Origin: a bacterium
GTDB lineage: Bacteria > Patescibacteriota > Minisyncoccia > UBA6257 > UBA9933
Length of the DNA stretch: 64,000 nt
Assembly (NCBI GenBank): GCA_021796335.1
Contig: JAJYHZ010000001.1
Coordinates: 219,454-283,453 of the forward strand
Direction: 5' to 3'
In this document: piece after piece, positions 810-29,439 of the stretch
How the letters are laid out: each line of letters starts with the position of its first letter
Numbering within the stretch: position 1 is the first letter of the stretch
Made by a program: the position numbers and the translations under genes
The notes under the pieces: model-generated
Seen by the model: the letters and a program-made list of their open reading frames with translations, nothing else
Database searches by the model: none
Told to the model about the DNA's origin: nothing

Positions 810-827
810 TTTAAATTTAATTATAAA

Positions 828-2279: not shown

Positions 2280-2357
2280 TTACGCATTCTACCATAAATT
2301 AGCCAAATTTTCTATAAAATGGTAAAATTATATTAGTTATTAAAACATTTAGGAGGT

Positions 2358-2783: not shown

Positions 2784-2803
2784 AATTTAAGAAATATACT
2801 CCC

Positions 2804-2835
2804 CCGCACTTCCTTTGGTTGTGCGGATTTTTTTC
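2804..2835 (+). terminator. rho-independent terminator (ccgcac-N11-gtgcgg + T7)
   Basis: Hairpin CCGCAC/GTGCGG followed by atttttttc, directly after the 2358..2783 ORF. Confidence 0.5.
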
Positions 2836-2915
2836 ATACTTAACAAAATAAATTACATTAGAAAATATCTTTTAATTTTGAAAGGATTTTTAAACTCATT
2901 TGTCTATTATTCAGA

Positions 2916-4136: not shown

Positions 4137-5305
4137 AAATTACCCAATCTTATTATCTCTTCCGCAATAGTCTGGGCGGCCTGAGGTTTGGAAAAATTTT
4201 TAGCCGCAAGAGACATCAATTTCAACAATTCCGGATTTTGGAATAATCTATTTATTTGATCTATGAATAAATGCGGTTTTAAATTTTCATCCTCAATAAC
4301 GATAGCCGCTCCCTTATCGGCATATTCGTAAGCGTTTTTAATTTGATGCTCGCCCGCAATCTCTTTTGATAAGGGCAATAAAATCGCCGGCTTACCCGCC
4401 GCGGCAACTTCAAAGATTGATCCGCTCCCCGCTCTTGATACAATCAGATCCGCGGCCGCATAAGCGTCCTTAATGTCGTCATTGAAATACGCCGCGATCC
4501 TAAAGGCGAATTTCAAATCATCGGGCAGGGTGTCGGCCGTTAATTTCCATTCCGATTTTATCTCGTCGAAGTTATTTATCCCGGTTTGCAATAAAATCTG
4601 TAATCCTCCGCTGACCAGCTCCTTTCCGATATTCACAAAAAAATCATTAATCCGCATAGCTCCTTGAGATCCGCCCAAAACCAGAATAAGCGGTTTTTCC
4701 GGATTGAATTCAAAAATTTTTTTTGCAACTTGCCTGTTAATGTCACCTTCTTTCAGTAAAAAATTTCTTATCGGATTTCCGACTAAAGCTATCTTTGCCA
4801 AAACATCGCCTTTATCTTGTTCTTTTTCGTAATGATCCGCAAAAGATTCCGCCGTTTTTTCAAATCCTATCGCAATCCGATCCGCATATTTGCTGGAAAA
4901 AAGGTTGGAAAAACCGGCGATTGAATCGGATTCATGGATTATTATGGGAATGCGATAAAATTTGCATGCCAGAACGACGGGTACCGAACCTGTTCCGCCT
5001 TTTGAAAATAAAACGTCCGGCATTATCCAAAAAACTTTCCAAAATGCCTGAATAATACCTAATAATAATCTGGGTAATGTAAAAATATTTCGGATATCGG
5101 AATACCTTCTGCGCTTCGCCGAAATCAATTTCGAAATCCGCACTCCATTGCTTACTAAAACAAATTCAAAATTTCCCGGACATCCCAAATAAATAATTTC
5201 CATCGGAATTCTTTTTTGATCGGAAATAATTTTTAATTGTTCGGCGACGGAAATCAAAGGATAAATATGGCCGCCGGAATCTCCTCCTGTCAATAAAATC
5301 CTCAT
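4133..5305 (-). CDS. murG: undecaprenyldiphospho-muramoylpentapeptide beta-N-acetylglucosaminyltransferase
   Basis: MRILLTGGDSGGHIYP N-terminus, GGSQGA motif, 390 aa. Adjacent to ftsW. Confidence 0.85.
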   Translation of the reverse strand: MRILLTGGDSGGHIYPLISVAEQLKIISDQKRIPMEIIYLGCPGNFEFVLVSNGVRISKLISAKRRRYSDIRNIFTLPRLLLGIIQAFWKVFWIMPDVLFSKGGTGSVPVVLACKFYRIPIIIHESDSIAGFSNLFSSKYADRIAIGFEKTAESFADHYEKEQDKGDVLAKIALVGNPIRNFLLKEGDINRQVAKKIFEFNPEKPLILVLGGSQGAMRINDFFVNIGKELVSGGLQILLQTGINNFDEIKSEWKLTADTLPDDLKFAFRIAAYFNDDIKDAYAAADLIVSRAGSGSIFEVAAAGKPAILLPLSKEIAGEHQIKNAYEYADKGAAIVIEDENLKPHLFIDQINRLFQNPELLKLMSLAAKNFSKPQAAQTIAEEIIRLGNL

Positions 5306-5348
5306 AAAAAACTTATGCTTTAATTTATGATTTTTAATTTATAGTCTC

Positions 5349-6470
5349 CTAATTATATCTTGATATATTAGCAATGATTCCCATCATGGTCAAAAAAATG
5401 GCGAGAGCCGTTCCTCCATAGCTTACGAAAGGCAGCGGTACTCCCGTTAGCGGTAAAATTCCCGAAATCGCTCCTATATTTATGAACGCCTGAAGCGCAA
5501 CAATGGAAATAAACCCGATCACGATTAGCCGTCCAAACTGATCCCTGCAATTCATGGCAATCTTAAAGCCCCTGATAAAAATTAGGGCAAACAGAGTTAT
5601 TAAAAATATAGCGCCCAAAAAACCCAATTCTTCCGCTATTACGGCAAAAATTGAATCGCCGAACGGTTCCGGTAAAAATTTATATTTCGCCGTTGCTTGA
5701 CCGTATCCCACCCCCGTCAACCCGCCGGAACCGATTGCAATCAAAGCTTGATTCCTTTGATAACCGCTTCCTTGAATATCCGCTTTATTGTGATTAATAT
5801 AATCGATCACGCGCTGATAACGGTAGGGAGTTATTGAAATGACCGCTCCAATCGCGACCACACCCAGTAAAATTATTCCGGCGATATATTTCAATTTTGC
5901 CCCGCTTACGAAATAAATAACCAAACTCGAAACCAGAATAATCGCTATTGTCGTAGTTGCCGGCTGTAAAATAACCAAAACAGAAATAAAACCGAGCAAA
6001 ATCAAAAGCGGCAGCAAACCTTCGTTAAAACTGGATTGTCGGTTCGCTTTTTTACTGGAGAGCCAAGCCGCCAAATAAATTATAAAATTCAATTTTAAAA
6101 GTTCCGCCGGCTGAACCGAAAGCGGCCCCAAATTAATCCACCGTGTGGCGCCGCCGGCATGCATGCCCAACGGAGTAAATACTAAAATTAAAGCGATAAT
6201 GCTGATAATCAAAAGATATGGCGCCGCCGTTTTCCATTTTTTATAAGGTATGAAATATCCCGCTAAAAATCCCGCTATTCCCAAACTTAAGCCATAGAGG
6301 ATTTGATGTTTAAGATAATAGAAAGTGTCGTTAAAATGAATTTTTCCCAAATCGGAAGAGGCGCTTGAAAGCATTGCCAACCCGAAAATCACCAGGATAA
6401 AAACCGTGGTGATAAAAACATAATCGGGAGATCCGCCTTTCTTTCTTAAAGTTTTTAAAAATCTAAACAT
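5349..6470 (-). CDS. ftsW: SEDS family peptidoglycan glycosyltransferase FtsW/RodA
   Basis: Polytopic membrane protein with a LPEPFGDSIFAVIAEELGFLGA motif. 373 aa. Confidence 0.85.
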   Translation of the reverse strand: MFRFLKTLRKKGGSPDYVFITTVFILVIFGLAMLSSASSDLGKIHFNDTFYYLKHQILYGLSLGIAGFLAGYFIPYKKWKTAAPYLLIISIIALILVFTPLGMHAGGATRWINLGPLSVQPAELLKLNFIIYLAAWLSSKKANRQSSFNEGLLPLLILLGFISVLVILQPATTTIAIILVSSLVIYFVSGAKLKYIAGIILLGVVAIGAVISITPYRYQRVIDYINHNKADIQGSGYQRNQALIAIGSGGLTGVGYGQATAKYKFLPEPFGDSIFAVIAEELGFLGAIFLITLFALIFIRGFKIAMNCRDQFGRLIVIGFISIVALQAFINIGAISGILPLTGVPLPFVSYGGTALAIFLTMMGIIANISRYN

Positions 6471-7989
6471 GCGAATGCTTTAGAATTTTTCCGGCATTTA
6501 CAGCCGTTAATTCTCCGTTTCTTAAAGTAATTTGTCCGTTTACAATGACGGTTTCTATTTTCCCGTCCCTAATCAAAACCAAATCGGCGCAATATCCTTC
6601 TTTTATTACTCCCCTATTCTTCAAACCCAGTCTGCTTGCCGGCAAACTGGTTATTTTTTTAATCGCTTTTTCTGCCGGCAAAATCTTATCTTTAAAAACC
6701 AGATTAAGATAATTTAAAAAAGTGCCGATTCCCGAGTCCGACGGATTTCGATTGTCAAAATCCTGGCCGGAAGAAGAAATAATCGACCGATCATTGACTA
6801 AAGCCAAAGGTATCCGCTTTAGCGAAAGATTCCTAAAATTAACGACAACCTTTAATTTTGTCTGCCTTAAAAGTTCCAATAAGCCTTCTTTGGAATCCAA
6901 TTCCGTATTTTGTATGAATTCCTTTAAAGTCTTTCCTTCCAAATGCCTGAATTCGGGAACTCTGAAAATAACAATTTCTTCAGTCTTCAAAATCGGCATA
7001 TCTTTTTTTATTTTTTTCCGGATTTCAGAATCATTTATATTTTTTAAAATCTCGTTGAATCCGCCCCGCAAAGCCCAGCCCGGAAGAAAATAAAAAGCCG
7101 GAATTATCGTTTCGTCTGAAAGATGGAAATTAAAAAAAACGTCAGCAGAAGCGGAATTCTCGTTTATCGAATCCAAAGCAGATTCATAATCTCTTTCTAA
7201 ACCTTTCGGACAGGAAAAATTGTTTATCTGCGTTTTTGCCATCGTTTCTTTCGCTAAATTTATAATTTCGTTTACCGCCGGCAAAAAATTTTCTTTTAAT
7301 GTTTTTGCCGGCAAAACGGCATCGGAGCCGTTGCGCAACTTAAAACTTATCAAACCTCTGTGTTTTGCTGCCGCCTCGAAAAATAATTTAATTTCTTTTG
7401 TCGATGTCAATGCGGTTAGCGGAAAATTCAAATCGAAGGAAATTCCAAAAGCGCCTTCTTTCATTGACCGATCCAAAATCAGCCTGAATACGTCGATTTC
7501 TTTAACAGTCAAATCTCTGAAATCATCGCCGATTATTTCTTCTTTCACGGTTGAATGACCGATAAAAGTCCCGAAATTAACGCCCAGTTTTTTGGTTTTC
7601 ATGAAATCAAGGAATTCTCCGACGGAATGCCAATCGGTGTTAAATTTAAAATGTTCGGCCCAAAATCTATGTAAATCCGGTTTTCCGTACAAAAGTGGTG
7701 CAAGCGAAATTCCGCTTTGACCGCCGATAATCGTAGTCACGCCCTGCTTGATAAAATTCTCTTGTGAGGGTTTCGAAAATAACCCTAGATAGAGGTCGGA
7801 ATAGGTGTTTATATCGATAAATCCCGGCGCCAAATATGCGCTTCCCAACCCGTCGAAAATTTCATCTGCTTTATATTGCGGAAAAGAACCGACAGCCGCG
7901 ATTTTGTCGTGTTTTATCAAAACATCAGCCCTTGTTGCGGGCTGATTCGTGCCGTTTAAAAGCAAAATATTTTTAATTAGAATGGACAT
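6463..7989 (-). CDS. amidohydrolase family protein (D-aminoacylase/dihydroorotase-like fold)
   Basis: N-terminus IKNILLLNG...ADVLIKHDKIAAVG and C-terminus LVLIRDGKIETV are typical of the metal-dependent amidohydrolase superfamily. Overlaps ftsW by 8 bp. Confidence 0.6.
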   Translation of the reverse strand: MSILIKNILLLNGTNQPATRADVLIKHDKIAAVGSFPQYKADEIFDGLGSAYLAPGFIDINTYSDLYLGLFSKPSQENFIKQGVTTIIGGQSGISLAPLLYGKPDLHRFWAEHFKFNTDWHSVGEFLDFMKTKKLGVNFGTFIGHSTVKEEIIGDDFRDLTVKEIDVFRLILDRSMKEGAFGISFDLNFPLTALTSTKEIKLFFEAAAKHRGLISFKLRNGSDAVLPAKTLKENFLPAVNEIINLAKETMAKTQINNFSCPKGLERDYESALDSINENSASADVFFNFHLSDETIIPAFYFLPGWALRGGFNEILKNINDSEIRKKIKKDMPILKTEEIVIFRVPEFRHLEGKTLKEFIQNTELDSKEGLLELLRQTKLKVVVNFRNLSLKRIPLALVNDRSIISSSGQDFDNRNPSDSGIGTFLNYLNLVFKDKILPAEKAIKKITSLPASRLGLKNRGVIKEGYCADLVLIRDGKIETVIVNGQITLRNGELTAVNAGKILKHSHV

Positions 7990-8228
7990 TTAAAGAAAAT
8001 CAATTCTTTATGAAATTAATATTTATTTTAGAATTTTTTTATTAAAAACAAAAGGGCCTGCTCTGATTAATGCGATAATATGAATACCAGCGCATTCTTC
8101 TAAAAATATCGTTTATATTTGAAACGCAGTTGGAAGATCATATCTTCAATTCCTTTTAAACGAAGAAGTTTAAGCGAAATTTTATTTCGGTATCCCGCCA
8201 AAAAATAGAGTCATTTCAAAATAGGTAA

Positions 8229-8266
8229 AAATTCGCTTTAAAAATTAAAAAACCCCGCCAATTAAA
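8229..8266 (-). terminator. rho-independent terminator downstream of the LamG-domain gene
   Basis: Minus-strand RNA reads aaaacccugc-loop-gcgggguuuu followed by uuaauuuuu. The stem is 10 bp with one G-U pair. Confidence 0.45.
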
Positions 8267-8416
8267 GCAGGGTTTTTAATTAATTTCATCGTTTTCTCTC
8301 CTGAGTCTCGTCGGGAGTTATCTGACGGAATATCCTTCCATCCCCTTTTCTTAATAATCTGTATATCACTCTCATATGCATCGAAACTTAATCACTCGGA
8401 TCTCGGGACGGACCGC

Positions 8417-11152
8417 TTATGGATTCGTAATCGTGCAGGTGTTGCCGCAGGAGCCTGCCGGCGTCTTACCGGTCATGGTTTCGTAATGTGCGTCGATCTG
8501 CGCCTGCGAAAGCAAGTGATCATACACTGCCACCTTACCCACCGCGCCCTTGAACCATGTGTCCATCGCCATCGTACCGATGGTAAGAGGTGATGAACCC
8601 GCTTTCGGCGCAATATCGTACTGGCTCATACAGCCAGTCGGCGCGTGCGCAGCAAAATCTTGCTTAACGCCATCCACCCAGATGTTAATGGTGCCTGGAT
8701 ATGCCGAAGAACAAGCCGGGGGTGTTTGTGTCGTGTCATATTCCGCAACGACATAAACCCACATACCAGTCTTAAACAAGCCTGCGACCGGCTGCCAATC
8801 CGCCGCGCTGCCTAAACCCGCGGATGGATTAAAGACATAAGCGGAGAAGCGGTTCGGACGGTTTTCAGGGGTGACAGCGCTGTAAAGACGCGCCTCCCAC
8901 TCACAGCTTGGCGAGTAGTTCTCGCATTTTCCCATCCAATCAACATAGCCATCACCGCTTGCGTTCGGGAACTGAAGTGTGTCAAGCCGCACCCAACCTT
9001 CCCAGGTAAGCTGACCGGTAGTCGGGATGGAAAGCGCAGGATTAGACGGAACCGTAAGATACTCGCTTGAACCGTTAAAGTCGGCGGCGATATCGCCGTT
9101 AGGCATTGCTACCGTGCTTGGCGTACCGCCTTTGTAGGTGCCGTCATTACCGTGGCCAGAAAGATCTGTCTCGTGCCCCGACGAAGACGAATTCATCGAA
9201 AAATACATAACCGGATTATCGGCAAGTATGAGCGAGTCGTATGTCGAAGCCGGAACTGAAGCTGATACTGGGTCAAGAGTGGAAATCGGCGCCAAAGCGC
9301 TATTTACTGCAACCGATGAATTAGAAAAAACATAATTTTTGAACGAAGCATCCATAAAATCTGTTCTAACTCCCCCATAACCGGTGTTTGTCATCGGCGA
9401 TCCTCCTTGTGATCCGTTATCGGTTGTCTGAACCGCTAAAACCCAATTTCCAGTATTATTCTTGTCAATATAAACCTGGATAAGAACCGAACCATCCGGC
9501 TGGTTAGTTACAACCGAGCGAAGTCCGATCCATGTATTTAGCGGAATTAAATTGGGATTACTGTTCTGATTGTAATTTCCGGAATAAACCTTGTTTAAAG
9601 CAAGTGTGTAGTATGCGCCATTTTCTTTTTTCTTAATTACGGCCTGCCCGTCAACACGAATACCGGTATAATAAACATTATTCTGATCGACGTATCTATT
9701 AAAAAAGAAAATGCCATTTGACGCGTTCCTATTCGGACTCGAACTTAACCAATACTTAGACACATTAAAATACGCCTGTTGCGATTCATTTTGATTTGAT
9801 GATTTAGTTACCAAACGAAAGATATTTTGCGGATGATAACCGTTATCAGTATCCACCGGATTTGTACTGTTGTACAAAATTCTCCATGGATCATTACTCG
9901 GCAAGCTTCCCGTAATTGATTTTCCCACTCCATTATTTACATAAAAGTATGCGCCCGAACTTAACCACCAATCCGAATCAGCACTTGCACTCATGGAATC
10001 TGCTTCAGTAATTATTCGATTTGCATTGAGTCCATAATAATTAGAAGTGGAAGTAGAAATGTTTACAGTAGAAGAACTTGTCTGGATATTTGTCGTCGAC
10101 GTTGTTGGACTGTTTGATTGAATTGACGTATTGCTTAATGTCTCACTGCCAGCGTCTGCAAAAGCATTAATGTAATTGAGATCTGTTGCTGTAGATTGTT
10201 CTGTTCGAAACGCATAACCAAGACCAACTGTTTTTTCTGACGATCCTTGCGGAGTTACGTAAATATCATAACTATGGTTGGGAATATCGATTGCCAAGCG
10301 GAATGTGTAAGTATTCCCCGCAGTATAAGGAATTGCGGTTTGAGCTTGATAACTTGAGCCGTTTCTGGCATCAATGTTCCCGTTAGTATTGAATCTGACG
10401 ATTGCGGCAAGATCAGTAAATTTTGAAGCTAATTGAGAAGACAGTCCGATAACGCCGTCCATATTATTTCCGTTTGGTATTGCATCAAAAGTAGCAGTGA
10501 ATTTGCCATTTTGAGCAGTTATTGGATTTCCTTGCCAGACGGAATTTGTTGTTATTGAGTTGTTTGTATTTGTTGTTGTCGTCGACGTTGTTGGACTGTT
10601 TGATTGAATTGACGTATTGCTTAATGTCTCACTGCCAGCGTCTGCAAAAGCATTAATGTAATTGAGATCTGTTGCTGTAGATTGTTCTGTTCGAAACGCA
10701 TAACCAAGACCAACTGTTTTTTCTGACGATCCTTGCGGAGTTACGTAAATATCATAACTATGGTTGGGAATATCGATTGCCAAGCGGAATGTGTAAGTAT
10801 TCCCCGCAGTATAAGGAATTGCGGTTTGAGCTTGATAACTTGAGCCGTTTCTGGCATCAATGTTCCCGTTAGTATTGAATCTGACGATTGCGGCAAGATC
10901 AGTAAATTTTGAAGCTAATTGAGAAGACAGTCCGATAACGCCGTCCATATTATTTCCGTTTGGTATTGCATCAAAAGTAGCAGTGAATTTGCCATTTTGA
11001 GCAGTTATTGGATTTCCTTGCCAGACGGAATTTGTTGTTATTGTTAAGGTTGAATTAGTAACGGCATTAGCTGGTAAAATTATCAAGCTAAGCGCCATTA
11101 TTCCCAATAAAACACCTGAAAATGCTTTATTGAGATTAGAAGCATAATTCAT
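8417..11152 (-). CDS. secreted repeat protein with C-terminal LamG/concanavalin-A-like domain
   Basis: 911 aa with a signal peptide (MNYASNLNKAFSGVLLGIMALSLIILPANA). It has two identical ~162-aa modules and S/T-rich linkers. The C-terminal segment ...DLSGHGNDGTYKGG...FNGSSEYLTVP...WEGWVRL is typical of LamG-like jellyroll domains. The 3' third (8417-9400) is much GC-richer than the rest of the gene. Confidence 0.75.
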   Translation of the reverse strand: MNYASNLNKAFSGVLLGIMALSLIILPANAVTNSTLTITTNSVWQGNPITAQNGKFTATFDAIPNGNNMDGVIGLSSQLASKFTDLAAIVRFNTNGNIDARNGSSYQAQTAIPYTAGNTYTFRLAIDIPNHSYDIYVTPQGSSEKTVGLGYAFRTEQSTATDLNYINAFADAGSETLSNTSIQSNSPTTSTTTTNTNNSITTNSVWQGNPITAQNGKFTATFDAIPNGNNMDGVIGLSSQLASKFTDLAAIVRFNTNGNIDARNGSSYQAQTAIPYTAGNTYTFRLAIDIPNHSYDIYVTPQGSSEKTVGLGYAFRTEQSTATDLNYINAFADAGSETLSNTSIQSNSPTTSTTNIQTSSSTVNISTSTSNYYGLNANRIITEADSMSASADSDWWLSSGAYFYVNNGVGKSITGSLPSNDPWRILYNSTNPVDTDNGYHPQNIFRLVTKSSNQNESQQAYFNVSKYWLSSSPNRNASNGIFFFNRYVDQNNVYYTGIRVDGQAVIKKKENGAYYTLALNKVYSGNYNQNSNPNLIPLNTWIGLRSVVTNQPDGSVLIQVYIDKNNTGNWVLAVQTTDNGSQGGSPMTNTGYGGVRTDFMDASFKNYVFSNSSVAVNSALAPISTLDPVSASVPASTYDSLILADNPVMYFSMNSSSSGHETDLSGHGNDGTYKGGTPSTVAMPNGDIAADFNGSSEYLTVPSNPALSIPTTGQLTWEGWVRLDTLQFPNASGDGYVDWMGKCENYSPSCEWEARLYSAVTPENRPNRFSAYVFNPSAGLGSAADWQPVAGLFKTGMWVYVVAEYDTTQTPPACSSAYPGTINIWVDGVKQDFAAHAPTGCMSQYDIAPKAGSSPLTIGTMAMDTWFKGAVGKVAVYDHLLSQAQIDAHYETMTGKTPAGSCGNTCTITNP
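10085..11043. repeat. perfect tandem direct repeat, 2 x 486 bp, inside the CDS
   Basis: The sequence tgtcgtcgacgttgttggactgtttgattgaattgacgtattgcttaatg... recurs with an offset of exactly 486 bp (10091 vs 10577). About 470 bp of each copy are identical by eye. Confidence 0.85.
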
Positions 11153-11512
11153 TTATTTTTATCCGCTTTCGATATCACACTAATCTGAACGTTTTGGAAC
11201 CTCGACTATCTTTGCGCAAATAGTTTCTCGTTTTATAAGTAAATTAATCAAAAACACTGTGCATTAACCAATTAAAAACCTCGACAAGGAAACAAAACAT
11301 AAAAATTAATGCAGGTTTTATCGATAATTACCCATAAAAACCATATCTTCAGCAGATAAAAAAGCGTATCATCCAAATCTCAAAAAAGCAAGGAAAATAA
11401 GGGTTATTTACACTCTAAGGCAAAAATGATGTAACATTCTTGACAGAAGATTTAGAATTTATTTCTCTATAAAAATTGAGCGGTTAATTAAAAATAGGAC
11501 ATGGATTATTTT

Positions 11513-11560
11513 AAAAGTAAAACGCCACTGGCTAAAAATTGTGGCGTTTTACTTTTAAAA
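11513..11560 (-). terminator. hairpin terminator downstream of the 11592..12671 gene
   Basis: A 13-bp stem agtaaaacgccac/gtggcgttttact flanked by T/A runs on both sides. It lies ~35 bp below the stop codon. Confidence 0.5.
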
Positions 11561-11591
11561 ATTATGCCGGGAAAAAACAGCCAAGAAAGAG

Positions 11592-12671
11592 CTACGGCTG
11601 AATTTCTCTAACACTCATTTTTTTATAAATCAGACCGTTTTCATTTACGTTGTCGCTTCTCCAATATACCGCAATGTTCGGTTTGCCCGATTCGGACCCC
11701 GGACGCTTGTTACTATCGGTCAGTTTCAGCGCCGGATTTATGCCAGGTGCGCAAGCCACCCCTCCGACTCCGAAGTTATTGCCATCATCGACAAATTCAT
11801 TTATTTTTTTCCAATCTCCGCCGTTTGCGCCATCCGTCAAATCCATATAAGCTTCAAGCTTTACTTTACCTTCGGAGAGATCATAAACCACGAATTTATA
11901 TCCGATCCACCGATCGTATGGCATTCCGTTGGGCCATATTGTTTTATTTGCGATTGCCGTTGAATTCGGATGGCTTGTCTCTTTTTCAAAATCCGTATGA
12001 CCGTCGTATCTTATCCTCGCATCAATCCCCCTGGTATCGCAGAGATTCTGCAGTTCGTTTCCGGTAGCTCCGTGATTTGTGCGCGCAACTCCTTCAATGC
12101 CGCCCCATGGAGTGTTTTGGTCGGAAATACGCTCGGCATAAACAGTCATTTCTACATTATGCCAACTTTGTTTAAGAGCGGGATCGTAAATATACATTCG
12201 CGGAGTTGACCCTGATATGTATAAAAGCCCCTTACCGTCAGCGTAATATGCCGCATCTCCGTGATCGGCGTCAAACCATAAATCTTGAGGATCAACTCCG
12301 GAAAATTTTCTTGCTATACCGTCATTCCATTGTGAAAACCATTCTTTTCCATCCGCAGCCGTAGGATAAATTTCGGCTATTCCAAAGACATCTTTACCGG
12401 ATATCTTTGCTTTTGGAATTGTTCCCGAGCCGAATCCATAACCTGAAAAAGCCGAAGAAGTATTATTTTTGTACGATGAATTATTTTCAAATCCGTAATT
12501 TTCTAAAGTGCTCGGAGAAGTTGAAGTATATTGCGGCACTACGCCAGGCTTGGAAGATTTTTTTTTGCTTTTTGCAGCTTCGAATACAAACACGGCAAAT
12601 ATTGCAAAAATCAAAATTGCTATAAAAAATATCGTTTTGGGTTTTAATTTTAATCCTGCAAATTTACTCAT
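11592..12671 (-). CDS. exported hypothetical protein, probable beta-jellyroll (lyase/lectin-like) fold
   Basis: 359 aa with an N-terminal signal anchor ([17 protein letters not shown]). The body is rich in W, Y, G and D. Its composition is beta-sheet-like with no ATP-binding or nucleotide-binding motifs. GC content is moderately elevated. Confidence 0.55.
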
Positions 12672-12699
12672 TTTTAAAAACGGCCGAATGGCCTGGATA

Positions 12700-12728
12700 T
12701 TGACTTTTAATTTAATATCGTATATATT
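12700..12728 (+). promoter_or_regulatory. sigma70-like promoter TTGACT-17-TATATT
   Basis: -35 at 12700-12705 and -10 at 12723-12728 with an exact 17-nt spacer. There is no plus-strand CDS downstream. Confidence 0.4.
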
Positions 12729-12734
12729 ATTAAC

Positions 12735-12836
12735 GTGAGTGAAAAGTTTTTCTTGTCTTTATCCGCCTCGGCGGACGAGGACATCCAAGAAAAGCTCTAT
12801 CCCAGTTTCCTCCGCCGAAAGGCGGAGGTTTTTATT
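12735..12836 (+). ncRNA. candidate small RNA (~100 nt) between two minus-strand genes
   Basis: A promoter is followed by two GC hairpins (ccgcc-tc-ggcgg at 12763-12774, and cctccgcc-GAAA-ggcggagg at 12809-12828). The second hairpin is followed by tttttatttggttt. It is oriented against the flanking genes. Confidence 0.35.
12809..12836 (+). terminator. rho-independent terminator (8-bp GC stem, GAAA loop, T-run)
   Basis: cctccgccgaaaggcggagg followed by tttttattt. On the minus strand the hairpin follows an A-run and has no downstream U-run, so it terminates plus-strand transcription. Confidence 0.55.
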
Positions 12837-12866
12837 TGGTTTGATTTTATTTTAAAAGGAAATATT

Positions 12867-15617
12867 TTATTGCGGATTTAGCATTTTTATTCCATAATCA
12901 TTAGTCACCACCTTTACTCCGGTCTGCGCGATATAATCCACTATTTGCTGGAATAATGCCGGCGTGATCGCGTAATTATCATTACTTGAATCAACCCTGT
13001 GAAATACTAAAACCAGCCATGTTTTGTCGGCGATTGACTGGTTAATCCAATTTTCGAACTGAGCCAAAGTGGTCGTATTTACCGCTTCCTGATATTTCAA
13101 TAAAAAATGGTCTGTTGATTTATCATTAAATCCGCTTTGCGTCGTTCTCGCTCCGACATATAATCCTGAATTTTTTAAAATCTGAACGGAAGTTGCGTCA
13201 TATTCTCCAAAAGGATAAGCAAATGTTGTTACATTTATGCCGATGCTATTTAGGGCATCCCACGAACCAGTAATTTCGTTCTGTTGGTCCGCATACGATA
13301 ATTGCGGCAAATGCGAATGATCAATCGTGTGCGAACCAATTTCCATTCCTTGGCTCTGCATATCCAAAACTTGAGCCGCATTTACGTAATCCGTATAATT
13401 GCCGTTAAGCGTATTGGTTATTATGTAAAATGTCCCTGATAAATTCGCTTGTTTTAAAATCGGAAAAGCTGTCTGATAAGCAGATATGTCACCATCATCG
13501 AAATTCAACGAAACCATCCCTTCAGAAAATTTATAAGGATTGTTTCCTAAATCTTTTAAATAATAATCATCTACTTTTAAAGATCCGACTCCGGTCAAAC
13601 TATGAAAAATAGTTATGGTTTTTGTGCCTGACGGAACTGCAAATTTTACATCAACCCCATTCCAGTTGTTTGCAAGAGTCGGACTCGCAATCGTTTGATA
13701 TTGATATGTCCCATCGGACATATGTAGCGCGACTTCAACCGTGTTTTGCGCAGTAGCCATATATTTATCCGAAAATTCATATAAATCTCCCGAAGTCGCA
13801 TTAACTTCAGAAAAATACCATTTCGCATCGCCGTTAGTATAGGAAGAAATATCAATTTCAGCCGCTTTACTATTAGTGCCGTCCACACCCGAAACCGGAT
13901 AAATAAAATTTGGAGTATTTACTCCCCATCCTCCCTCATACCAATTTTGCGGCAAACCTGTTGCGGAATCTGCAATTTCAAAGGATGGGTTCTTAATTAA
14001 ATTATCAGTTGATGTAGGAGGCGGAGGAGGAGGCGTCGGAGAAGTTATATCATTTAAATTAAATTCCCCGGTTGTTAATGAACCGACGCTCACCAAAGAG
14101 TGCAAAATTGTAACAGATTGCGAATTAGCAGGAGCAATAAAAGTGGACGTTGCAACTGCCGGGCTAATTGATGCCCCGGGCCTTGATAAAAGCAAATAAG
14201 AATATGTTCCGTCTGCTAAATGCACTCTGGCAATTATTGCCGTTGATGTGTCGGCGGTATAATAGTCGGAAAATTGGTATTGATGGCCGGGAATAACCGC
14301 AACATCCTTAAAATACCATCTGGAAGCTCCGCTTGTATATGAAGATATGCTTATTTTTGCCGCATCATCATTATTAAATCCCGCGACAGGATAAGTAAAT
14401 GTTGTTTGGTTAACGCCCCAATTGCCCTTATACCAGCCCTGTGGCAGACCGCTTGAAGCATCCATTAATGAAAGCGAGGGATTGAAAATTAAGTTATCAG
14501 TATTTGTTGCCGCAGGCGGCGAAGGCGGAGGAGAAGGCGTTGATGTTGATAAATAAAAATTGTCGGTTGTCAGCGAACCTGCGCTGTCCAAATATTGGTA
14601 AATATTAAGCGATTGCACGCCCGTCGGCACGACAAAAGTTGTTGTGCTGTTTTTCCATGCGTTGGATGCCGATTGAGGAAAATCAATATAAGAATAATAC
14701 CCGCCGGATAAAGTATAGCGTATTTCCAATGTAGTCGGAACTGTTGCAATGTAGGAATCGGAGAAAGTGTAAGTTTGTCCCGGTGTTGCCGGAATATCGC
14801 CGAAGGTCCACTTGGCATCTCCGCTTGTGTATGAAGTCATATCAACCTTGGCTGCATTCCCTCCGTCAATGCCCGGTACGGAATAAGTAAAGTTCGATTG
14901 GTTTATTCCCCATTTATCTTCTGTCCATCCCGCAGGCAAGCCGTCTGCGCCTACTGAATCAAAGGAACCATTATTAATTAAATTGCCGCCAGAAGACGAT
15001 GGAGGCGGAGAAATTATTGAATTTGCAATCAAGGAAAAATTATCTACTGTGAGCGATCCCACATTATCTAAATATTGATATATTGTAAATGACTTAACTC
15101 CGGCAGGAACCGTAAAAGTAGATGTGGAAGATTGCCACGTATCCGAAATGCTTGGAAATACAATGTCGTCATAAGTATAATTCCCATTAATTAAGAGATA
15201 TCTGACCTCAATCGTAGTCGGAACTGTTGCAATATAAGAATCGGAGAAAGTGTAAGTTTGTCCCGGTGTTGCCGGAATATCGCCGAAGGTCCACTTGGCA
15301 TCTCCGCTTGTGTATGAAGTCATATCAACCTTGGCTGCATTCCCTCCGTCAATGCCCGGTACGGGATAAGTAAAGTTCGATTGGTTTATTCCCCAGCTGT
15401 CTTGCGACCAACCTGCCGGCGCTCCATTTGCGCCCGTAATTTCAAAAGACCCATTGGGAATAAGATTCGATAAATCGCTTGCTTTTGTCTTAGAAATTAT
15501 CGGAAAATTCAAGGAGTTAAAAACAAAAATTATTGAAAAAAATACAACTAGGAACCTAAGAAAAACTCTTTTCATAGTATTGAAGAAAATAAAACGACCT
15601 TTTATTTTAAATTTCAA
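12867..15617 (-). CDS. secreted protein with 4 CBM-like modules and a C-terminal polysaccharide deacetylase (CE4/NodB) domain
   Basis: 916 aa with a signal anchor. It has four ~160-aa modules (NGSFE...GWxxDxWGxNQSxFTY...YTSGDAKW...Y), which are CBM4/9-like, joined by P/S linkers. The C-terminus has NFDDGDISAY...GSHTIDHSHL, which are CE4 deacetylase motifs. Confidence 0.75.
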   Translation of the reverse strand: MKFKIKGRFIFFNTMKRVFLRFLVVFFSIIFVFNSLNFPIISKTKASDLSNLIPNGSFEITGANGAPAGWSQDSWGINQSNFTYPVPGIDGGNAAKVDMTSYTSGDAKWTFGDIPATPGQTYTFSDSYIATVPTTIEVRYLLINGNYTYDDIVFPSISDTWQSSTSTFTVPAGVKSFTIYQYLDNVGSLTVDNFSLIANSIISPPPSSSGGNLINNGSFDSVGADGLPAGWTEDKWGINQSNFTYSVPGIDGGNAAKVDMTSYTSGDAKWTFGDIPATPGQTYTFSDSYIATVPTTLEIRYTLSGGYYSYIDFPQSASNAWKNSTTTFVVPTGVQSLNIYQYLDSAGSLTTDNFYLSTSTPSPPPSPPAATNTDNLIFNPSLSLMDASSGLPQGWYKGNWGVNQTTFTYPVAGFNNDDAAKISISSYTSGASRWYFKDVAVIPGHQYQFSDYYTADTSTAIIARVHLADGTYSYLLLSRPGASISPAVATSTFIAPANSQSVTILHSLVSVGSLTTGEFNLNDITSPTPPPPPPTSTDNLIKNPSFEIADSATGLPQNWYEGGWGVNTPNFIYPVSGVDGTNSKAAEIDISSYTNGDAKWYFSEVNATSGDLYEFSDKYMATAQNTVEVALHMSDGTYQYQTIASPTLANNWNGVDVKFAVPSGTKTITIFHSLTGVGSLKVDDYYLKDLGNNPYKFSEGMVSLNFDDGDISAYQTAFPILKQANLSGTFYIITNTLNGNYTDYVNAAQVLDMQSQGMEIGSHTIDHSHLPQLSYADQQNEITGSWDALNSIGINVTTFAYPFGEYDATSVQILKNSGLYVGARTTQSGFNDKSTDHFLLKYQEAVNTTTLAQFENWINQSIADKTWLVLVFHRVDSSNDNYAITPALFQQIVDYIAQTGVKVVTNDYGIKMLNPQ
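14731..15420. repeat. intragenic direct repeat, period 483 bp, ~200 bp near-identical
   Basis: gtagtcggaactgttgcaat...gcattccctccgtcaatgcccggtacgg occurs at 14731 and again at 15214. It corresponds to two of the four CBM-like modules. Confidence 0.75.
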
Positions 15618-15661
15618 AAAATTTTTTCCGGCTAATAGAATAAATTTGACTGCAAAAGTTT

Positions 15662-15681
15662 TAAGCTGATTAATCAGCTTA
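15662..15681. promoter_or_regulatory. perfect 20-bp palindrome TAAGCTGATT/AATCAGCTTA upstream of the CE4 gene
   Basis: Exact inverted repeat ~45 bp upstream of the start at 15617 and downstream of the formyltransferase stop. Confidence 0.3.
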
Positions 15682-15838
15682 TATGTAATTTAAGTAAGAA
15701 AATTCTGCCTTTAAAACGGACAAAAAACATTGCCGGAATAACAAGCGAAAATTTATGGTTTTAAAGAGAAAAATAAGTAAGTTGAGTAAGTTGCTCGTTA
15801 TTTAAATTATAATCTATTTAGGCATAAACCTCAATCAA

Positions 15839-16513
15839 TCATCCTCTTCCCGGCCTGAAAAATTCTAATATCGCTGGCGCGATATCGCCGGAATAAACCG
15901 CTTTATTCCCTTTTAATTTAATTTTTCCGTTAACAACCAGATTCAAAATAAAGCTTTGCCATGCTCTTTCTTTTTCATTAATTCTTTCTGATAAAGCAAT
16001 TGCGGTGTCACTTGAGCGGATTAAAACCGGAAGTTTAAAGATAATAGGCCCTTCATCGTATTTTTCAGTCACAAAATGAATCGTAAATCCGCTTTGTTTT
16101 ATTTTTCTTTCTTTAAATGATTTGATGGCGGCTTCATGGACATGGCGCCCGTACATTCCGGGCCCGCCGAATTCGGGCAAAAGCGCCGGATGAATATTTA
16201 TCGTTTTTGCGGGATTCAACCCTTTCACCAATTTCAGCCACCCCGAACACATGACATAATCGGCCTGAAACTTTTTTACCAAATTTTGATATCCGGTTTT
16301 TTCAAAAGGACCGGGGAAATATTTAAAAGGAATTCCCAATTTTTTCGCTCTTTTAAAAACGCCGCCGCTTTGATGATTAGAAACTACGCCGACTATTTCC
16401 GCGTTCAAAACAGCCGGATTTGTCCGCGACTGTTGTACCATTTCTTCAAATCCGGATCCTCCGCTATCTTTTGTCCCCGACGCCAAAACCAGTATTTTCG
16501 GCTTAGTTCTCAT
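15839..16513 (-). CDS. formyltransferase family protein (PurN-like, phosphoribosylglycinamide formyltransferase fold)
   Basis: LVLASG...SGW..LV and NIHPALLPEFGG motifs. 224 aa. Confidence 0.65.
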   Translation of the reverse strand: MRTKPKILVLASGTKDSGGSGFEEMVQQSRTNPAVLNAEIVGVVSNHQSGGVFKRAKKLGIPFKYFPGPFEKTGYQNLVKKFQADYVMCSGWLKLVKGLNPAKTINIHPALLPEFGGPGMYGRHVHEAAIKSFKERKIKQSGFTIHFVTEKYDEGPIIFKLPVLIRSSDTAIALSERINEKERAWQSFILNLVVNGKIKLKGNKAVYSGDIAPAILEFFRPGRG

Positions 16514-17298
16514 TTGTTTAAAATATTAAATAAACTGATTCCAGTTGCCACTGCGACATTCAAGGATTCCGCCTTCCCTCGCCCCGGAATTTTATATTCC
16601 AGATCGGCCAGATTCAAAATATCCTGATTCAATCCGTGCGACTCATTGCCCATAATTAATGCAAATTTTTCTTTTTCAAAATCTAGCTGTTCTTTTCCAT
16701 CCAAGGAAGTTGCGATTATTGAATAATTTTTTAATTTTAAATCTTTTATAAATTCAATTAAATTCTGATTCTCGATGATATTCACGTGAAAAATCGAACC
16801 CATAGTTGATTGCAGAACCTTCGAATTATAAATGTCAACCGATCCTTCCCCTAAAACGATGTTTTTTATCCCGAACCAATCTGCGGTTCTGATTATAGTG
16901 CCCAGATTTCCCGGATCCCTGATTTCATCCAAAATCAAAAATGATATATTTTCATTTTCACCCTGAACCGGCCGAGAGGGTTCATTGATTTGGGCGCCGG
17001 ATTTTTTTACAACTGCCAATATTCCGGACGGCGTTTCCAAAGAAGAAAGCACGCCGAAATCCCGGTTATCGGCGATGAAAATTTTTATTTTCTTCCTTTC
17101 CGCTACTTCAATAATTTCCTTTGTTTTGGAACTGTTTAAAAGAAAATTTTTTATTACAATAAAGGAAAATTCCCGGCCGGCCGCAAACGCCTCTTCGATA
17201 ATTTTAAATCCTTCAATGACAAATTCGCCGTAATTGTCTCTATGCTTTTTTTGCTTTAGTAAAACTATTTTCTTTTTTAAAGTTGTTGATAATTTCAT
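16510..17298 (-). CDS. TrmH/SpoU family RNA 2'-O-methyltransferase (RlmB-like)
   Basis: DPGNLGTIIRTADWFG motif and a SpoU substrate-binding N-terminal domain. 262 aa. Confidence 0.75.
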   Translation of the reverse strand: MKLSTTLKKKIVLLKQKKHRDNYGEFVIEGFKIIEEAFAAGREFSFIVIKNFLLNSSKTKEIIEVAERKKIKIFIADNRDFGVLSSLETPSGILAVVKKSGAQINEPSRPVQGENENISFLILDEIRDPGNLGTIIRTADWFGIKNIVLGEGSVDIYNSKVLQSTMGSIFHVNIIENQNLIEFIKDLKLKNYSIIATSLDGKEQLDFEKEKFALIMGNESHGLNQDILNLADLEYKIPGRGKAESLNVAVATGISLFNILNK

Positions 17299-17561
17299 TC
17301 CAAAGAAAGAATCTTAAATCCTTTTTCCTTGACATCCTTCTCCGTCCAGACAAAACTATTGATTTTAAACTCTCCGACATAAGTTATTTTTTTCTCGATT
17401 TTTCTTCCGGTATATTTTTTTATTTTCTGATCCCATTCTTCCAAAATCAGAATATCGCCCTCATTTGCTTCAAAGTCATTCAATCGCATGTCATATCGCT
17501 TTTTTCCCGAAAGAATCGCTTCAAAATATTCCGGCCAGGTTTTTTTCTTAATTATTGCCAT
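17295..17561 (-). CDS. DUF3850/ASCH-like (PUA-fold) small protein
   Basis: 88 aa. KTWPEYFEAILSGKKRYDMRLNDF...GDILILEEWD matches the DUF3850/ASCH pattern. Confidence 0.55.
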   Translation of the reverse strand: MAIIKKKTWPEYFEAILSGKKRYDMRLNDFEANEGDILILEEWDQKIKKYTGRKIEKKITYVGEFKINSFVWTEKDVKEKGFKILSLE

Positions 17562-17732
17562 TTATTTACAAAACTTTGATTTTTTCCATTCTATTACAAG
17601 TTAACGAAAAATCAAAAATCAATAAAGAGACTCTTAGCCGAACCTTCCGTCTCTCTAGAGATAGATCAACATAATAATCCTTGTACACACCCGCCCCGAT
17701 GCTTCTCCGGCAGTTTTTATTGCCATCATTAA

Positions 17733-18068
17733 TTAAACTTGTAATAACTTAAATTTTATAATTTTTACCAAAGTTTCAGAATTGACCTTATCGCCGTAAT
17801 ATTTTTGATAAGTTTCCATCATCTCTTCATGGTTTCCGAACTTTTCATGGCCGATGTAGTCCGTTTCGTTTAATTCTTTCATCGGTTTTTCTTCTAATTC
17901 GATAATTTCCGCTTCTCCGAATTTTTCGCCCGTTTCCCAATTTATCAGATTAATTTTATCGCCTATCCGCAAGTCCTTATCATCAAACAACCTCCAAGTC
18001 ACATCCTTCCTGCCTTCTAAAATTTCTGTTGCCAAAAATGGCCTGAATTTAAGCGATTTTATAACCAT
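17733..18068 (-). CDS. ASCH domain protein
   Basis: 111 aa. LKFRPFLATEILEGRKDVTWRLFDDKDLRIGDKINL matches the ASCH fold pattern. Confidence 0.5.
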   Translation of the reverse strand: MVIKSLKFRPFLATEILEGRKDVTWRLFDDKDLRIGDKINLINWETGEKFGEAEIIELEEKPMKELNETDYIGHEKFGNHEEMMETYQKYYGDKVNSETLVKIIKFKLLQV

Positions 18069-18102
18069 AATTTATCATTACTTCCCATAACACTTTTATT
18101 GC

Positions 18103-18501
18103 TTATTGACTATCATGCAAGAATTTCTCCATTTTTATCATATTCACTAATCCGATAGCGTTTTTACCTTTCCTTACAAATCCTAATCTCTGATAAAATC
18201 CCACTGCATTTAAGGTTGCGTTCAAAGAAATTTTTTCTTTGCCAGCATTTTTAAATTTATCTTCCATCACGTCGTACAACCTTCTGCCTATTCCTTGCTT
18301 CAGAAAATCGGGATCAACATTGATTTGATATATTTCACCATCAGCGACTGAATATTGTCCGAATCCAACCAATTTACCTTTTTCTTCCGCCACTATCCAA
18401 TCCGAATTCTGAAATTGATATTTTACATTTTCTTCTAATATATCTCTAAGCCACTCACTTACTGCTTCGGGAGAATAAAATTCAGAATTAACCTCTCTCA
18501 C
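18103..18501 (-). CDS. GNAT family N-acetyltransferase
   Basis: LKQGIGRRLYDVMEDKFKNAG...LNATLNAVGFYQRLGF is an acetyl-CoA binding motif of the Q/RxxGxG/A type. Confidence 0.7.
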   Translation of the reverse strand: MREVNSEFYSPEAVSEWLRDILEENVKYQFQNSDWIVAEEKGKLVGFGQYSVADGEIYQINVDPDFLKQGIGRRLYDVMEDKFKNAGKEKISLNATLNAVGFYQRLGFVRKGKNAIGLVNMIKMEKFLHDSQ

Positions 18502-18589
18502 AACTTTTTTGTGTAATTCAGTAATAACTTTAGCATCATCTGTTTATATTTAGCAGCGAATCCACAGGTAAAACGAAGTTTTATCTGTG

Positions 18590-18625
18590 GCGAGCGAACC
18601 AAATAAAAAAATGTCACGCTCCGTG
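18590..18625 (-). terminator. putative terminator overlapping the secA stop codon
   Basis: Minus-strand RNA augccac-ggagc-guggcau-like hairpin followed by uuuuuuuauuu. Confidence 0.35.
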
Positions 18626-21154
18626 GCATTTTTTAAACTTTTTCCCCGAGCCGCATGGACAGGGATCATTTCTCCCCACTCCTTCGTATTTTGGATCAAT
18701 GTTTGAATCACTGCTTAACTTTACTGCCGGAACCGGTTCAGCTGCGGCTGATTTTTCATTAGAAAGAATTAAAATACTTTTCCAAACATCGGCGAATACC
18801 CAGTCTTGATAAGATTGAAGCAAATTTTGGAATAGTAAATAACTTTCACGGCGGTACTCGGTCAATGGATCATGCTGTCCGTAAGCCCTGATTCTGACTG
18901 ATTCCCGCAAATCATCCAGACTTTCCAGATGTCCCATCCATAATTTATCCAGAAATGCCAGCAATCTTACACGCACATTAACCTCGACAACCGGATCGAT
19001 TTTTTCGTTTATTTTTTTCAGCAAATACTCCCTGATATCCTCGATTTCCCGGGATTCTTCATCGCCCAAAGCACCCGCTTCAATCAAAAACTTAATCAAA
19101 TCGTTTCTTTCCGGAAACTGTGCGGATAGCCTATCCAATGCGCCCGAAACTATTTCAGTCAACTCTTCTGCTAAATTTTTCACCAGCAAATCATCTCTTT
19201 TTTTATAGATTGCGGTTCTTTGTTTATTTAGAACATCGTCATAATCCAATAAATGCTTTCGAGTATCAAAGTTAAATCCTTCAACCTTCTTCTGAGCTTC
19301 ATTTACGATTTTAGAAACCATTTTAGATTCAATAGGTTGATCTTCCGGCAAATTAAAAGTCTCCATTATTTTTTTGACCCGATCGCCCCCGAAAATCCGT
19401 AAAAGATCGTCGTCCAGCGAGAGATAAAACTGGGTTATACCCGGATCGCCCTGTCTTCCCGAACGTCCTTGCAACTGCTTGTCAATTCTTCGCGCTTCGT
19501 GCCTTTCAGTGCCAATGACAAAAAGTCCGCCCAGATTTTTTATTTTCTGAGCTTCTTCTAAATTCGGCGGATTGCCCCCTAAAATAATATCGACTCCGCG
19601 CCCCGCCATGTTTGTCGCAACGGTTACGCCACTCTTTTTCCCAGCTTGAGCGATAATCTCTCCCTCACGTTCGTTATTCTTAGCGTTCAAAGCTTCATGA
19701 GAAATTCCGGATCTTTTCAGTAAATCGGAAATAATTTCGTTTTTTTCGATCGAAGTCGAACCGATTAAAACTGGCTGTCCCGATTGATGCAGTTCTCTTA
19801 CTTTCTTCACCAGCGCCGCGTACTTTGCTTTGGAATTTTTATAAATCAAATCCGGCATGTCTTTTCGAATCATCTGCTTGTTTGTCGGTATGCTAACAAC
19901 CTCAAGTTTATAAACTTTATGGAATTCTTCCGCTGAAGTCTGCGCCGTACCGGTCATTCCAGAAATTTTTTCGTACAAACGAAAATAATTTTGAATCGTA
20001 ATTTGGGCATATGTTCGCGATTCCTGCTGTATTTTAACTCCTTCCTTCGCCTCGATTGCCTGATGCAAACCTCCAGAGTATCTTCTGCCCGGCATTAGTC
20101 TTCCGGTAAACTCGTCGACTATAATGATTTCTCCGTTCTTAACCACATATTGCTTATCTTTGTGAAAGAGTCCTTTTGCTTTCAAAGATTCATCAAGATA
20201 ATGGACAAGCTGAAAATTTTCCGGACTGTAAATATTTGATATATTTAACATCTCCTCGACTTTATTGATTCCACTGTCCGTAATCGCAACAGACTTCATT
20301 TTCTCGTCAACATCATAATCCTCATTCTCCTTCAAATTTTGAGCGATTTTCGAAAAAACTCTGTAAAACTCGCTTGATTCCGTATCCGGTGCGGCAATAA
20401 TAAGTGGGGTTCTCGCCTCGTCGATTAAAATACTGTCAATTTCATCTATAATCGCATAACTGTGTCCGTTTTGTACTTTGTCTTCCGGCCGATAAGCAAG
20501 ATTATCGCGTAAATAATCAAATCCGAATTCGTGGTTGGTTCCGTATAAAATATCGGTTTTATACGCTTCTTTTCTGCTGATTGGCCTTAAAAATTCCTTA
20601 AAAACTTTGAAACTGCCTTTTAAATCCCGTTCTGCGTCCGTTTCCTGTTCTTCACTCTTGTCAGGAATGTAAGCCGGATCGTATAAAAATGCACTTTCAT
20701 GCGTTAAACATCCCACAGTTAAGCCTAAAACATTGTAAATTTGGCCCATCCAGACGGTATCGCGCTCGGCTAGATAATCATTGACGGTTATGACATGAAC
20801 TCCTTTCCCTGTCAAAGCATTCAGATATGCCGCCAAAGTGGCGGTTAAAGTTTTTCCTTCACCCGTCATCATCTCGGCTATCTTCCCTTCATGCAAAACA
20901 ATTCCTCCTATAAGCTGCACATCGAAATGCCGCTGTTTGAGGGTTCTTTTGGAAGCTTCCCGAATTAAAGCGAATGCCTGCGGAAGCAAATCTTCCAAGA
21001 TGCTTCCTTCCGAATAAGTTTTCTTCAGTTCAAGACTCTTTTCTTTCAGTTGACCATCGGCAAACGACCCGAATTCCTTCTCAAGCTGATTTATTTTTTT
21101 GATGACCGGATCATAATCATATTCACCGAATATTTTTTTAAATAAATTTGACAT
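18614..21154 (-). CDS. secA: preprotein translocase ATPase SecA
   Basis: 846 aa. It has DEAD-like motor motifs and a C-terminal zinc-binding CPCGSGKKFKKCHG. Confidence 0.9.
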   Translation of the reverse strand: MSNLFKKIFGEYDYDPVIKKINQLEKEFGSFADGQLKEKSLELKKTYSEGSILEDLLPQAFALIREASKRTLKQRHFDVQLIGGIVLHEGKIAEMMTGEGKTLTATLAAYLNALTGKGVHVITVNDYLAERDTVWMGQIYNVLGLTVGCLTHESAFLYDPAYIPDKSEEQETDAERDLKGSFKVFKEFLRPISRKEAYKTDILYGTNHEFGFDYLRDNLAYRPEDKVQNGHSYAIIDEIDSILIDEARTPLIIAAPDTESSEFYRVFSKIAQNLKENEDYDVDEKMKSVAITDSGINKVEEMLNISNIYSPENFQLVHYLDESLKAKGLFHKDKQYVVKNGEIIIVDEFTGRLMPGRRYSGGLHQAIEAKEGVKIQQESRTYAQITIQNYFRLYEKISGMTGTAQTSAEEFHKVYKLEVVSIPTNKQMIRKDMPDLIYKNSKAKYAALVKKVRELHQSGQPVLIGSTSIEKNEIISDLLKRSGISHEALNAKNNEREGEIIAQAGKKSGVTVATNMAGRGVDIILGGNPPNLEEAQKIKNLGGLFVIGTERHEARRIDKQLQGRSGRQGDPGITQFYLSLDDDLLRIFGGDRVKKIMETFNLPEDQPIESKMVSKIVNEAQKKVEGFNFDTRKHLLDYDDVLNKQRTAIYKKRDDLLVKNLAEELTEIVSGALDRLSAQFPERNDLIKFLIEAGALGDEESREIEDIREYLLKKINEKIDPVVEVNVRVRLLAFLDKLWMGHLESLDDLRESVRIRAYGQHDPLTEYRRESYLLFQNLLQSYQDWVFADVWKSILILSNEKSAAAEPVPAVKLSSDSNIDPKYEGVGRNDPCPCGSGKKFKKCHGA

Positions 21155-24336: not shown

Positions 24337-24384
24337 AAATCTAATCGTATATTTTGACGATCGTCAAAATATACGATTAGATTT
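24337..24384. repeat. perfect 48-bp palindrome with CGATCG centre
   Basis: aaatctaatcgtatattttgacga|tcgtcaaaatatacgattagattt was verified base by base. It overlaps the uvrC stop codon (24383-24385). Confidence 0.9.
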
Positions 24385-29433: not shown

Positions 29434-29439
29434 TCTTAA

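Follow-up and report, generated by a model that had tools for sequence, protein, structure and literature searches.

A candidate cis-antisense small RNA in the spacer of a putative polysaccharide deacetylase operon from a Patescibacteria-type bacterium

The plus strand of a 195-bp spacer (12672-12866) between two minus-strand genes, located in a 64,000-nucleotide stretch of contig JAJYHZ010000001.1 of GenBank assembly GCA_021796335.1 (hereafter referred to as the window), carries a promoter-like site, a long hairpin (hairpin 1) and an intrinsic terminator. These elements are tentatively interpreted here as a unit encoding a lineage-specific cis-antisense RNA of about 100 nt, which would act on an operon formed by the two flanking genes, one for a 916-aa protein with a polysaccharide deacetylase domain and the other for a 359-aa membrane-anchored protein. 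A first-pass annotation, made from the nucleotide sequence and a list of its open reading frames (ORFs), had described the spacer between these two ORFs, and the promoter hexamers, both hairpins and the terminator are all present at the positions it gave (Table 1). Its proposal of a plus-strand RNA of about 100 nt is a reasonable one and is strengthened by the strand-specific features described below, with a single sequence in its support. It missed that the flanking genes probably form an operon, to an intercistronic mRNA segment of which the unit would be antisense.

The terminator bears out its earlier description as a strong one. A GC-rich 8-bp stem with a GAAA loop, abutted by TTTTTATT on the plus strand only, gives it the features of a Rho-independent terminator, and its stability is -16.9 kcal/mol on the plus strand versus -16.0 kcal/mol on the minus strand. 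The sequence directly 3' of the hairpin on the plus strand is TTTTTATTT, which contains a run of five T residues (T5), the element with its T5 extending over 12809-12833. It ranks first among the terminator-like sites in positions 1-20000, its 20-nt sequence occurs only once in the window (0 expected) and it is of the same type as the canonical terminators of this genome on the coding-strand genes. A strict T5 lies within 1 nt of a given intergenic position with p = 0.021. The promoter candidate agrees with the reference (TTGACA/TATAAT, spacing of 16-18 nt) at 10 of the 12 positions and has a spacing of 17 nt; only three plus-strand matches of at least 10/12 were observed in 9865 nt of intergenic DNA. 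The co-occurrence by chance of a promoter match, a hairpin and an abutting T5, in the right order and on the right strand, is expected about 0.02 times over about 15 strong intergenic hairpins, a value which is our own rough estimate from the T5 p-value and the counts of promoter matches. The combination of the three is unusual.

Four independent features point to the plus strand as the one transcribed. The T-run abuts the terminator stem on the plus side, while the minus side reads AAACTGGG; since the plus strand has no A-run ahead of the stem, the terminator is one-directional and not bidirectional. Read on the plus strand, the terminator loop is GAAA, a GNRA tetraloop; the minus strand has UUUC in its place. 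A difference of 8.6 kcal/mol favours hairpin 1 on the plus strand (-25.1 versus -16.5 kcal/mol) because of three G-U pairs, which become A-C mismatches on the minus strand, and the promoter-like site faces the same way as the T-run, the GNRA loop and the G-U bias. The fold of the whole spacer is likewise more stable on the plus strand (-65.7 kcal/mol) than on the minus strand (-53.4 kcal/mol). As the genes on the coding strand carry canonical terminators with a GC-rich stem and a U-tract in their own orientation, the reversed orientation observed here is meaningful.

The predicted RNA is highly structured. The 102-nt unit at 12735-12836 folds at -43.4 kcal/mol as compared to -24.8 +/- 3.4 kcal/mol for dinucleotide shuffles (z = -5.46, with none of the 200 shuffles as good), the mean pair probability of its best fold is 0.97, and the hairpins clearly exceed chance. 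Hairpin 1 ends in the apex UCCGC-CUCG-GCGGA (DNA motif CCGCC-TC-GGCGG), and the pattern CCGCC-N2-8-GGCGG was found four times in the window against 0.12 expected, two of the four being inside the unit. The most accessible segment of the RNA, as judged by the unpaired probabilities, is the linker CUCUAUCCCAGUUU together with the 5' tail.

The deacetylase gene and the 359-aa gene most likely constitute a single minus-strand operon, the mRNA of which would cross the spacer. The spacer lacks any minus-oriented terminator and any promoter match of at least 9/12 on the minus strand; a promoter candidate precedes the 916-aa gene and two strong, minus-oriented terminators directly follow the 359-aa gene, the first of which reads CAGCC...GGCTG followed by T6. 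In addition, homologues of the two proteins co-occur on contigs of unrelated organisms, often with a chitin-synthase-like glycosyltransferase. If a two-gene mRNA does cross the spacer, a plus-strand RNA from 12735-12836 would be fully complementary to its intercistronic segment, over the region 31-132 nt past the stop codon of the deacetylase gene and 64-165 nt ahead of the start codon of the 359-aa gene, so that this start codon would be left uncovered.

According to the proposed mechanism, transcription would start near 12735 from TTGACT-17-TATATT and end near 12833-12836 at the GAAA hairpin and its U-tract, and the resulting RNA would be perfectly complementary to the intercistronic segment of the bicistronic mRNA. 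It may act by two routes. In the first, pairing through the unpaired 5' tail and the linker would be followed by cutting of the duplex by a double-strand-specific nuclease and uncoupling of the two cistrons, and in the second, converging RNA polymerases would collide in the 100-nt zone bounded by the terminator. What the sequence shows is the elements themselves, their fold, the strand asymmetry and a spacer free of minus-oriented terminators; promoter activity, the co-transcription of the two genes and every effect downstream of these are what we infer. That an antisense RNA of a Patescibacteria member tunes the ratio between a surface deacetylase and its partner with a predicted lectin fold, by cutting or blocking their shared mRNA in the spacer, is a more doubtful proposition. 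We know of no experimentally supported small RNAs from Patescibacteria, a group in which, to our knowledge, the regulatory repertoire is barely known and most of the intergenic DNA is unannotated, and our literature searches found no specific small RNA reported for these bacteria. If real, the unit would provide a concrete example of RNA-based regulation in their reduced genomes and would tie such regulation to the modification of cell-surface polysaccharides, which is likely to be relevant to an episymbiotic lifestyle.

Table 1. Features of the candidate RNA unit and of the flanking genes (positions in the window)
Feature	Position	Strand or location	Remarks
Sigma-70-like promoter candidate TTGACT-17 nt-TATATT	12700-12728 (TTGACT 12700-12705, TATATT 12723-12728)	+	10/12 match
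Predicted transcript start	near 12733-12736	+	from the candidate promoter
Predicted transcript of about 100 nt: 10-nt 5' tail, hairpin 1, 12-nt linker, terminator hairpin, U-tract	12735-12836	+	from the fold
Hairpin 1, 52 nt	12745-12796	+	21 pairs including 3 G-U, one A/C mismatch, 4-nt bulge (UCCA)
Single-stranded linker CUCUAUCCCAGUUU	about 12797-12808	+	reaches the terminator base
Intrinsic terminator CCTCCGCC-GAAA-GGCGGAGG then UUUUUAUU	12809-12836 (hairpin 12809-12828)	+	8-bp stem, 7 G-C
Small hairpin GGCC-GAAU-GGCC	12682-12693	between the 359-aa start codon and the -35 hexamer	-6 to -7 kcal/mol
359-aa membrane-anchored protein, downstream cistron	11592-12671	-	C-terminal domain conserved, matches no family
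916-aa protein, repeated carbohydrate-binding modules and polysaccharide deacetylase domain, upstream cistron	12867-15617	-	
Promoter candidate TTGAGG-17-TATAAT before the 916-aa gene	15806-15834	-	for the putative two-gene operon
Two terminators directly after the 359-aa gene	11515-11600	-	putative operon end

Searches for relatives of the unit were performed at several levels. The covariance-model scan that the first-pass annotation had suggested returned no family, with no match to Rfam 15 at the gathering thresholds in the whole 64-kb window, in which no tRNA or tmRNA was detected either. At E-values up to 10, the region 12600-12950 gave 13 matches, all generic and below threshold, some of them with a weak resemblance to leader or cis-regulatory models; the best over the unit was anti-hemB, with 20.7 bits against a gathering threshold of 49.5. 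The window, 27 fetched loci and the metagenome and viral collections yielded neither a homologue nor a second copy, the collections being scanned with exact patterns and the covariance model being built from the single sequence. A pattern search allowing three mismatches and the covariance model identified no repeat copies of the repetitive extragenic palindrome (REP) or miniature inverted-repeat transposable element (MITE) kind within the 64 kb. The 16 genome loci and the nearest homologue locus (L020) reached through the 359-aa protein have other gene contexts and no similar RNA by BLASTN, nhmmer or covariance model. Similarly, the closest relatives by PurN (at most 72% identity) share no synteny and have no homologous RNA, the best deacetylase homologue is only 42% identical, and a further locus (L030) differs in gene order, its sole model hit being one of 10 bits at a terminator. 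The metagenome scan with a double-apex pattern gave only two matches, both in GC-rich coding DNA and therefore attributable to chance, and two patterns found nothing in the viral contigs. At 90% identity, each of the five window proteins tested is alone in its cluster in a set of about 15 billion sequences, which indicates a lineage without sequenced close relatives; the absence of homologues is thus weak evidence either way.

Several observations weigh against an antisense RNA. The promoter match taken alone is weak evidence, as matches of this class occur at shuffle frequency (10 versus 7.9 +/- 2.2 expected in 2.5 kb) and show no more than a roughly twofold enrichment in the intergenic DNA of either strand, and the earlier term "textbook" overrates a 10/12 match. 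Hairpins of high stability are common in the intergenic DNA of this genome, where several segments have a more extreme z than this unit, these better-scoring structured segments being mostly ordinary terminators. With only 4 nt each, the hairpin loops are ill suited to loop-loop contacts of the kind that antisense RNAs typically make, and the G-U asymmetry (three positions versus one) is not significant as a count. Three other assemblies of the same population match the spacer and its flanks at 100% identity, so these offer no variation for an analysis of covariation, and the support for the RNA is confined to one sequence, with no homologue in the loci and collections searched. Intergenic promoter-to-terminator units are a standard output of small-RNA predictors and many have never been validated; the present unit is a prediction of this common kind and an unproven member of a well-known class.

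The main rival explanation, unlikely in our estimate and yet to be taken seriously, is that the hairpins act only in the minus-strand mRNA, as intercistronic stem-loops that protect against 3' exonucleases or serve in processing and thereby set the levels of the two cistrons. There would then be no small RNA, and the plus-strand promoter match and the T-run would be coincidences of an AT-rich, T-skewed DNA. The minus strand of the spacer does fold well (z = -4.5 for the -53.4 kcal/mol given above), the 8-bp hairpin is about equally stable in the mRNA and is located 38 nt past the stop codon of the 916-aa gene, and hairpin 1 on the minus strand is followed two bases on by UUUU, making weak termination or attenuation conceivable. 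Promoter-like matches at chance level, and loose T-rich stretches that follow 23% of the plus-strand intergenic positions, also favour coincidence. Against this stand the strict T5 abutting the stem, for which the p-value is 0.02, a loop that is GAAA only on the plus strand, and hairpin 1, which on the minus strand not only loses its 8.6 kcal/mol but also gains internal loops. Moreover, the minus-strand genes end in clear minus-oriented U-tract terminators, and the terminator of the spacer is oppositely oriented.

A relic or an insulator, which we hold to be distinctly unlikely, would be a terminator that either remained from a lost or rearranged plus-strand gene or stops stray antisense transcription from entering the deacetylase gene, its product having no function. 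The flanking proteins belong to a type that has spread horizontally and the locus evidently lies in a variable region; the nearest relatives found have retained neither the synteny nor the spacer and the conservation of the unit cannot be shown, all of which would suit a relic. Hairpin 1, however, is long, strand-biased and not needed for termination, and decay would be expected in a relic, yet the terminator stem has 8/8 standard pairs and hairpin 1 keeps its 21.

Somewhat more improbable again is an RNA that is made but acts in trans, pairing through its 5' tail or linker with distant mRNAs or binding a protein, with its position in the spacer being incidental. The unpaired 5' end, structured body, U-rich linker and terminator with a U-tail are the anatomy of many such RNAs. 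Nevertheless, none of the 41 translation start regions in the window gives a better target than shuffled seeds, the fractions of shuffled seeds at least as good being 0.60 and 0.72, and since perfect complementarity to the overlapping mRNA comes free, a role in cis needs fewer assumptions than one in trans.

The first-pass annotation had noted that the arms shared by the two hairpins permit alternative pairings, which would make the unit a conditional terminator of the attenuator or riboswitch type, with the ccgcc/ggcgg arms swapping partners and readthrough into the deacetylase antisense. The cross-pair can indeed be formed (6 bp between GGCGGA of hairpin 1 and UCCGCC of the terminator), and the weak sub-threshold resemblances to leader and cis-regulatory models would agree with such a switch. 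The cross-paired fold, however, is worse by 12.8 kcal/mol (-30.6 versus -43.4), no such fold lies within 6 kcal/mol of the best one, hairpin 1 forms first during transcription, no riboswitch or leader model of Rfam matches at threshold and there is no plus-strand gene downstream to be regulated; the switch was rejected and is very improbable. Least credible of all is a small protein from a 48-codon GTG frame (12735-12881) which, although it opens at the predicted transcript start and qualifies the earlier statement that no plus-strand ORF follows the promoter, passes the terminator by 45 nt and enters the neighbouring gene, so that a terminated transcript would have no stop codon; there is no ATG in the unit and no gene was placed in the spacer by the gene caller of the source assembly. 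A type I toxin-antitoxin system was also considered and rejected, as the longest minus-strand frame inside the spacer has nine codons and no small hydrophobic toxin frame lies opposite the RNA.

The window has the look of a Patescibacteria (candidate phyla radiation) genome, with a G+C content of about 38% and nearly every ORF of at least 150 aa on the minus strand; its PurN has its nearest named relatives among proteins of Patescibacteria and Falkowbacteria. A Shine-Dalgarno-like sequence is absent before most of the start codons, with GGAGG present at a few genes such as that at 37707-38891. The small hairpin at 12682-12693 precedes the ATG of the 359-aa gene by 10 nt; GTTTTTAAAA-ATG comes next on the minus strand and the mRNA strand reads GGCC-AUUC-GGCC-G-UUUUU-AAAA-AUG, which resembles a miniature terminator or attenuator at the place where a ribosome-binding site is normally found. 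At the other end of the gene, 11515-11566 forms a perfect 20-bp hairpin, TTTTAAAAGTAAAACGCCAC...GTGGCGTTTTACTTTTAAAA, with A and T runs symmetric on its flanks, as in a textbook bidirectional terminator; it is the second of the two terminators there and comes after the smaller hairpin with T6.

The 359-aa protein contains, at residues ~94-359 (about 265 residues), a domain without sequence matches in Pfam, NCBIfam or the Protein Data Bank (PDB). It has more than 1000 homologues at E <= 1e-30, which share 55-78% identity although their lineages are very distant (Thaumarchaeota, Pacearchaeota/Nanoarchaeota, Elusimicrobia, Patescibacteria and Methylovulum), are often fused to FN3, discoidin, LamG or carbohydrate-binding module (CBM) domains, and are encoded near genes for GT2 chitin-synthase-like proteins and polysaccharide deacetylases. 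An alignment of 32 sequences of the domain has about 80 invariant columns, many of them D, H, R, E, K or W. The AlphaFold model of the protein (predicted local distance difference test, pLDDT, 81.5) is a beta-sandwich with a predicted concanavalin-A-like lectin/glucanase fold, the nearest solved folds being L-type lectins (ERGIC-53, VIP36, legume lectins) and a PL-14 alginate lyase, at low template modelling (TM) scores of 0.3-0.6. This C-terminal domain may be an uncharacterised, horizontally spread carbohydrate-active domain. Within the deacetylase gene, the 187-bp segments 14727-14912 and 15209-15395 are about 98% identical in DNA and encode repeated carbohydrate-binding modules, suggesting a recent internal duplication or gene conversion.

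Some other elements of the window were also recorded. The gene for a 911-aa surface protein (8417-11152, minus strand) contains a perfect 486-bp tandem duplication, with copies around 10255-10410 and 10741-10896. The copy number of this repeat seems to vary between assemblies: in another one (L017), the alignment of which to the window is split in two at about 10557-10576, the protein has 749 aa in place of 911, a difference of exactly one 486-bp copy (162 codons). Directly after the stop codon of the gene 24383-25585, positions 24339-24382 form a perfect 44-bp palindrome, ATCTAATCGTATATTTTGACGATCGTCAAAATATACGATTAGAT, which shares bases with a promoter-like hexamer, TTGACG; it has the most extreme fold of the intergenic segments in the window (z = -9.7) and could be a bidirectional terminator or a protein-binding operator. 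A second plus-strand arrangement at 29406-29632 has TTGACA-17-TAAAAT (11/12) followed about 170 nt on by a terminator-like hairpin with T7, and lies in a gap of 1 kb that is flanked by minus-strand genes and contains two small minus-strand ORFs (80 and 71 aa); it was tried as a sibling RNA unit and rejected, being not unusually structured (z = -1.0) and having no Rfam match.

Comparison with known systems places the candidate among RNAs of similar form. With anti-hemB (Burkholderia RNA 7, RF02837) it shares a generic shape, in which a short GC hairpin and a spacer precede a GC-rich terminator with a U-tail, a resemblance common to very many RNAs; the internal parts of that model are replaced by unrelated sequence in the candidate, which is not a member of the family. 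Like the intercistronic stabilising stem-loops (REP hairpins, as in malEFG), the spacer has GC-rich hairpins soon after the upstream stop codon that fold on the mRNA strand. Unlike the REP hairpins, they are single-copy in the window, and the other strand is favoured by the T-run and the GNRA loop as well as by the G-U pairs and the promoter-like site. RNAI, CopA and Sok, antisense RNAs of plasmid copy-number control or of type I antitoxin function, are short, highly structured, constitutively terminated and fully complementary to an overlapping transcript, properties that are also predicted for the candidate. RNAs of this type use loops of 5-7 nt for kissing contacts, whereas the loops of the candidate are of 4 nt; it also has no small toxin frame opposite and is chromosomal, inside a probable operon.

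The closest precedent in layout is gadY, a small-RNA gene of E. coli on the opposite strand between the co-directional genes gadX and gadW (PMC11300174). The candidate shares with GadY (RF00122) this position opposite two co-directional genes, their co-transcription being a probable one in the present case. GadY is reportedly about 100 nt long and its pairing with the gadX-gadW intergenic mRNA is said to direct a cleavage involving RNase III; it binds Hfq. It is an RNA of E. coli, while the candidate belongs to a Patescibacteria-type bacterium and is a prediction from sequence, with no sequence or structure similarity to GadY, which is not among the 13 matches listed at E-values up to 10. The likeness between the two would thus be one of working mode and not of family membership.

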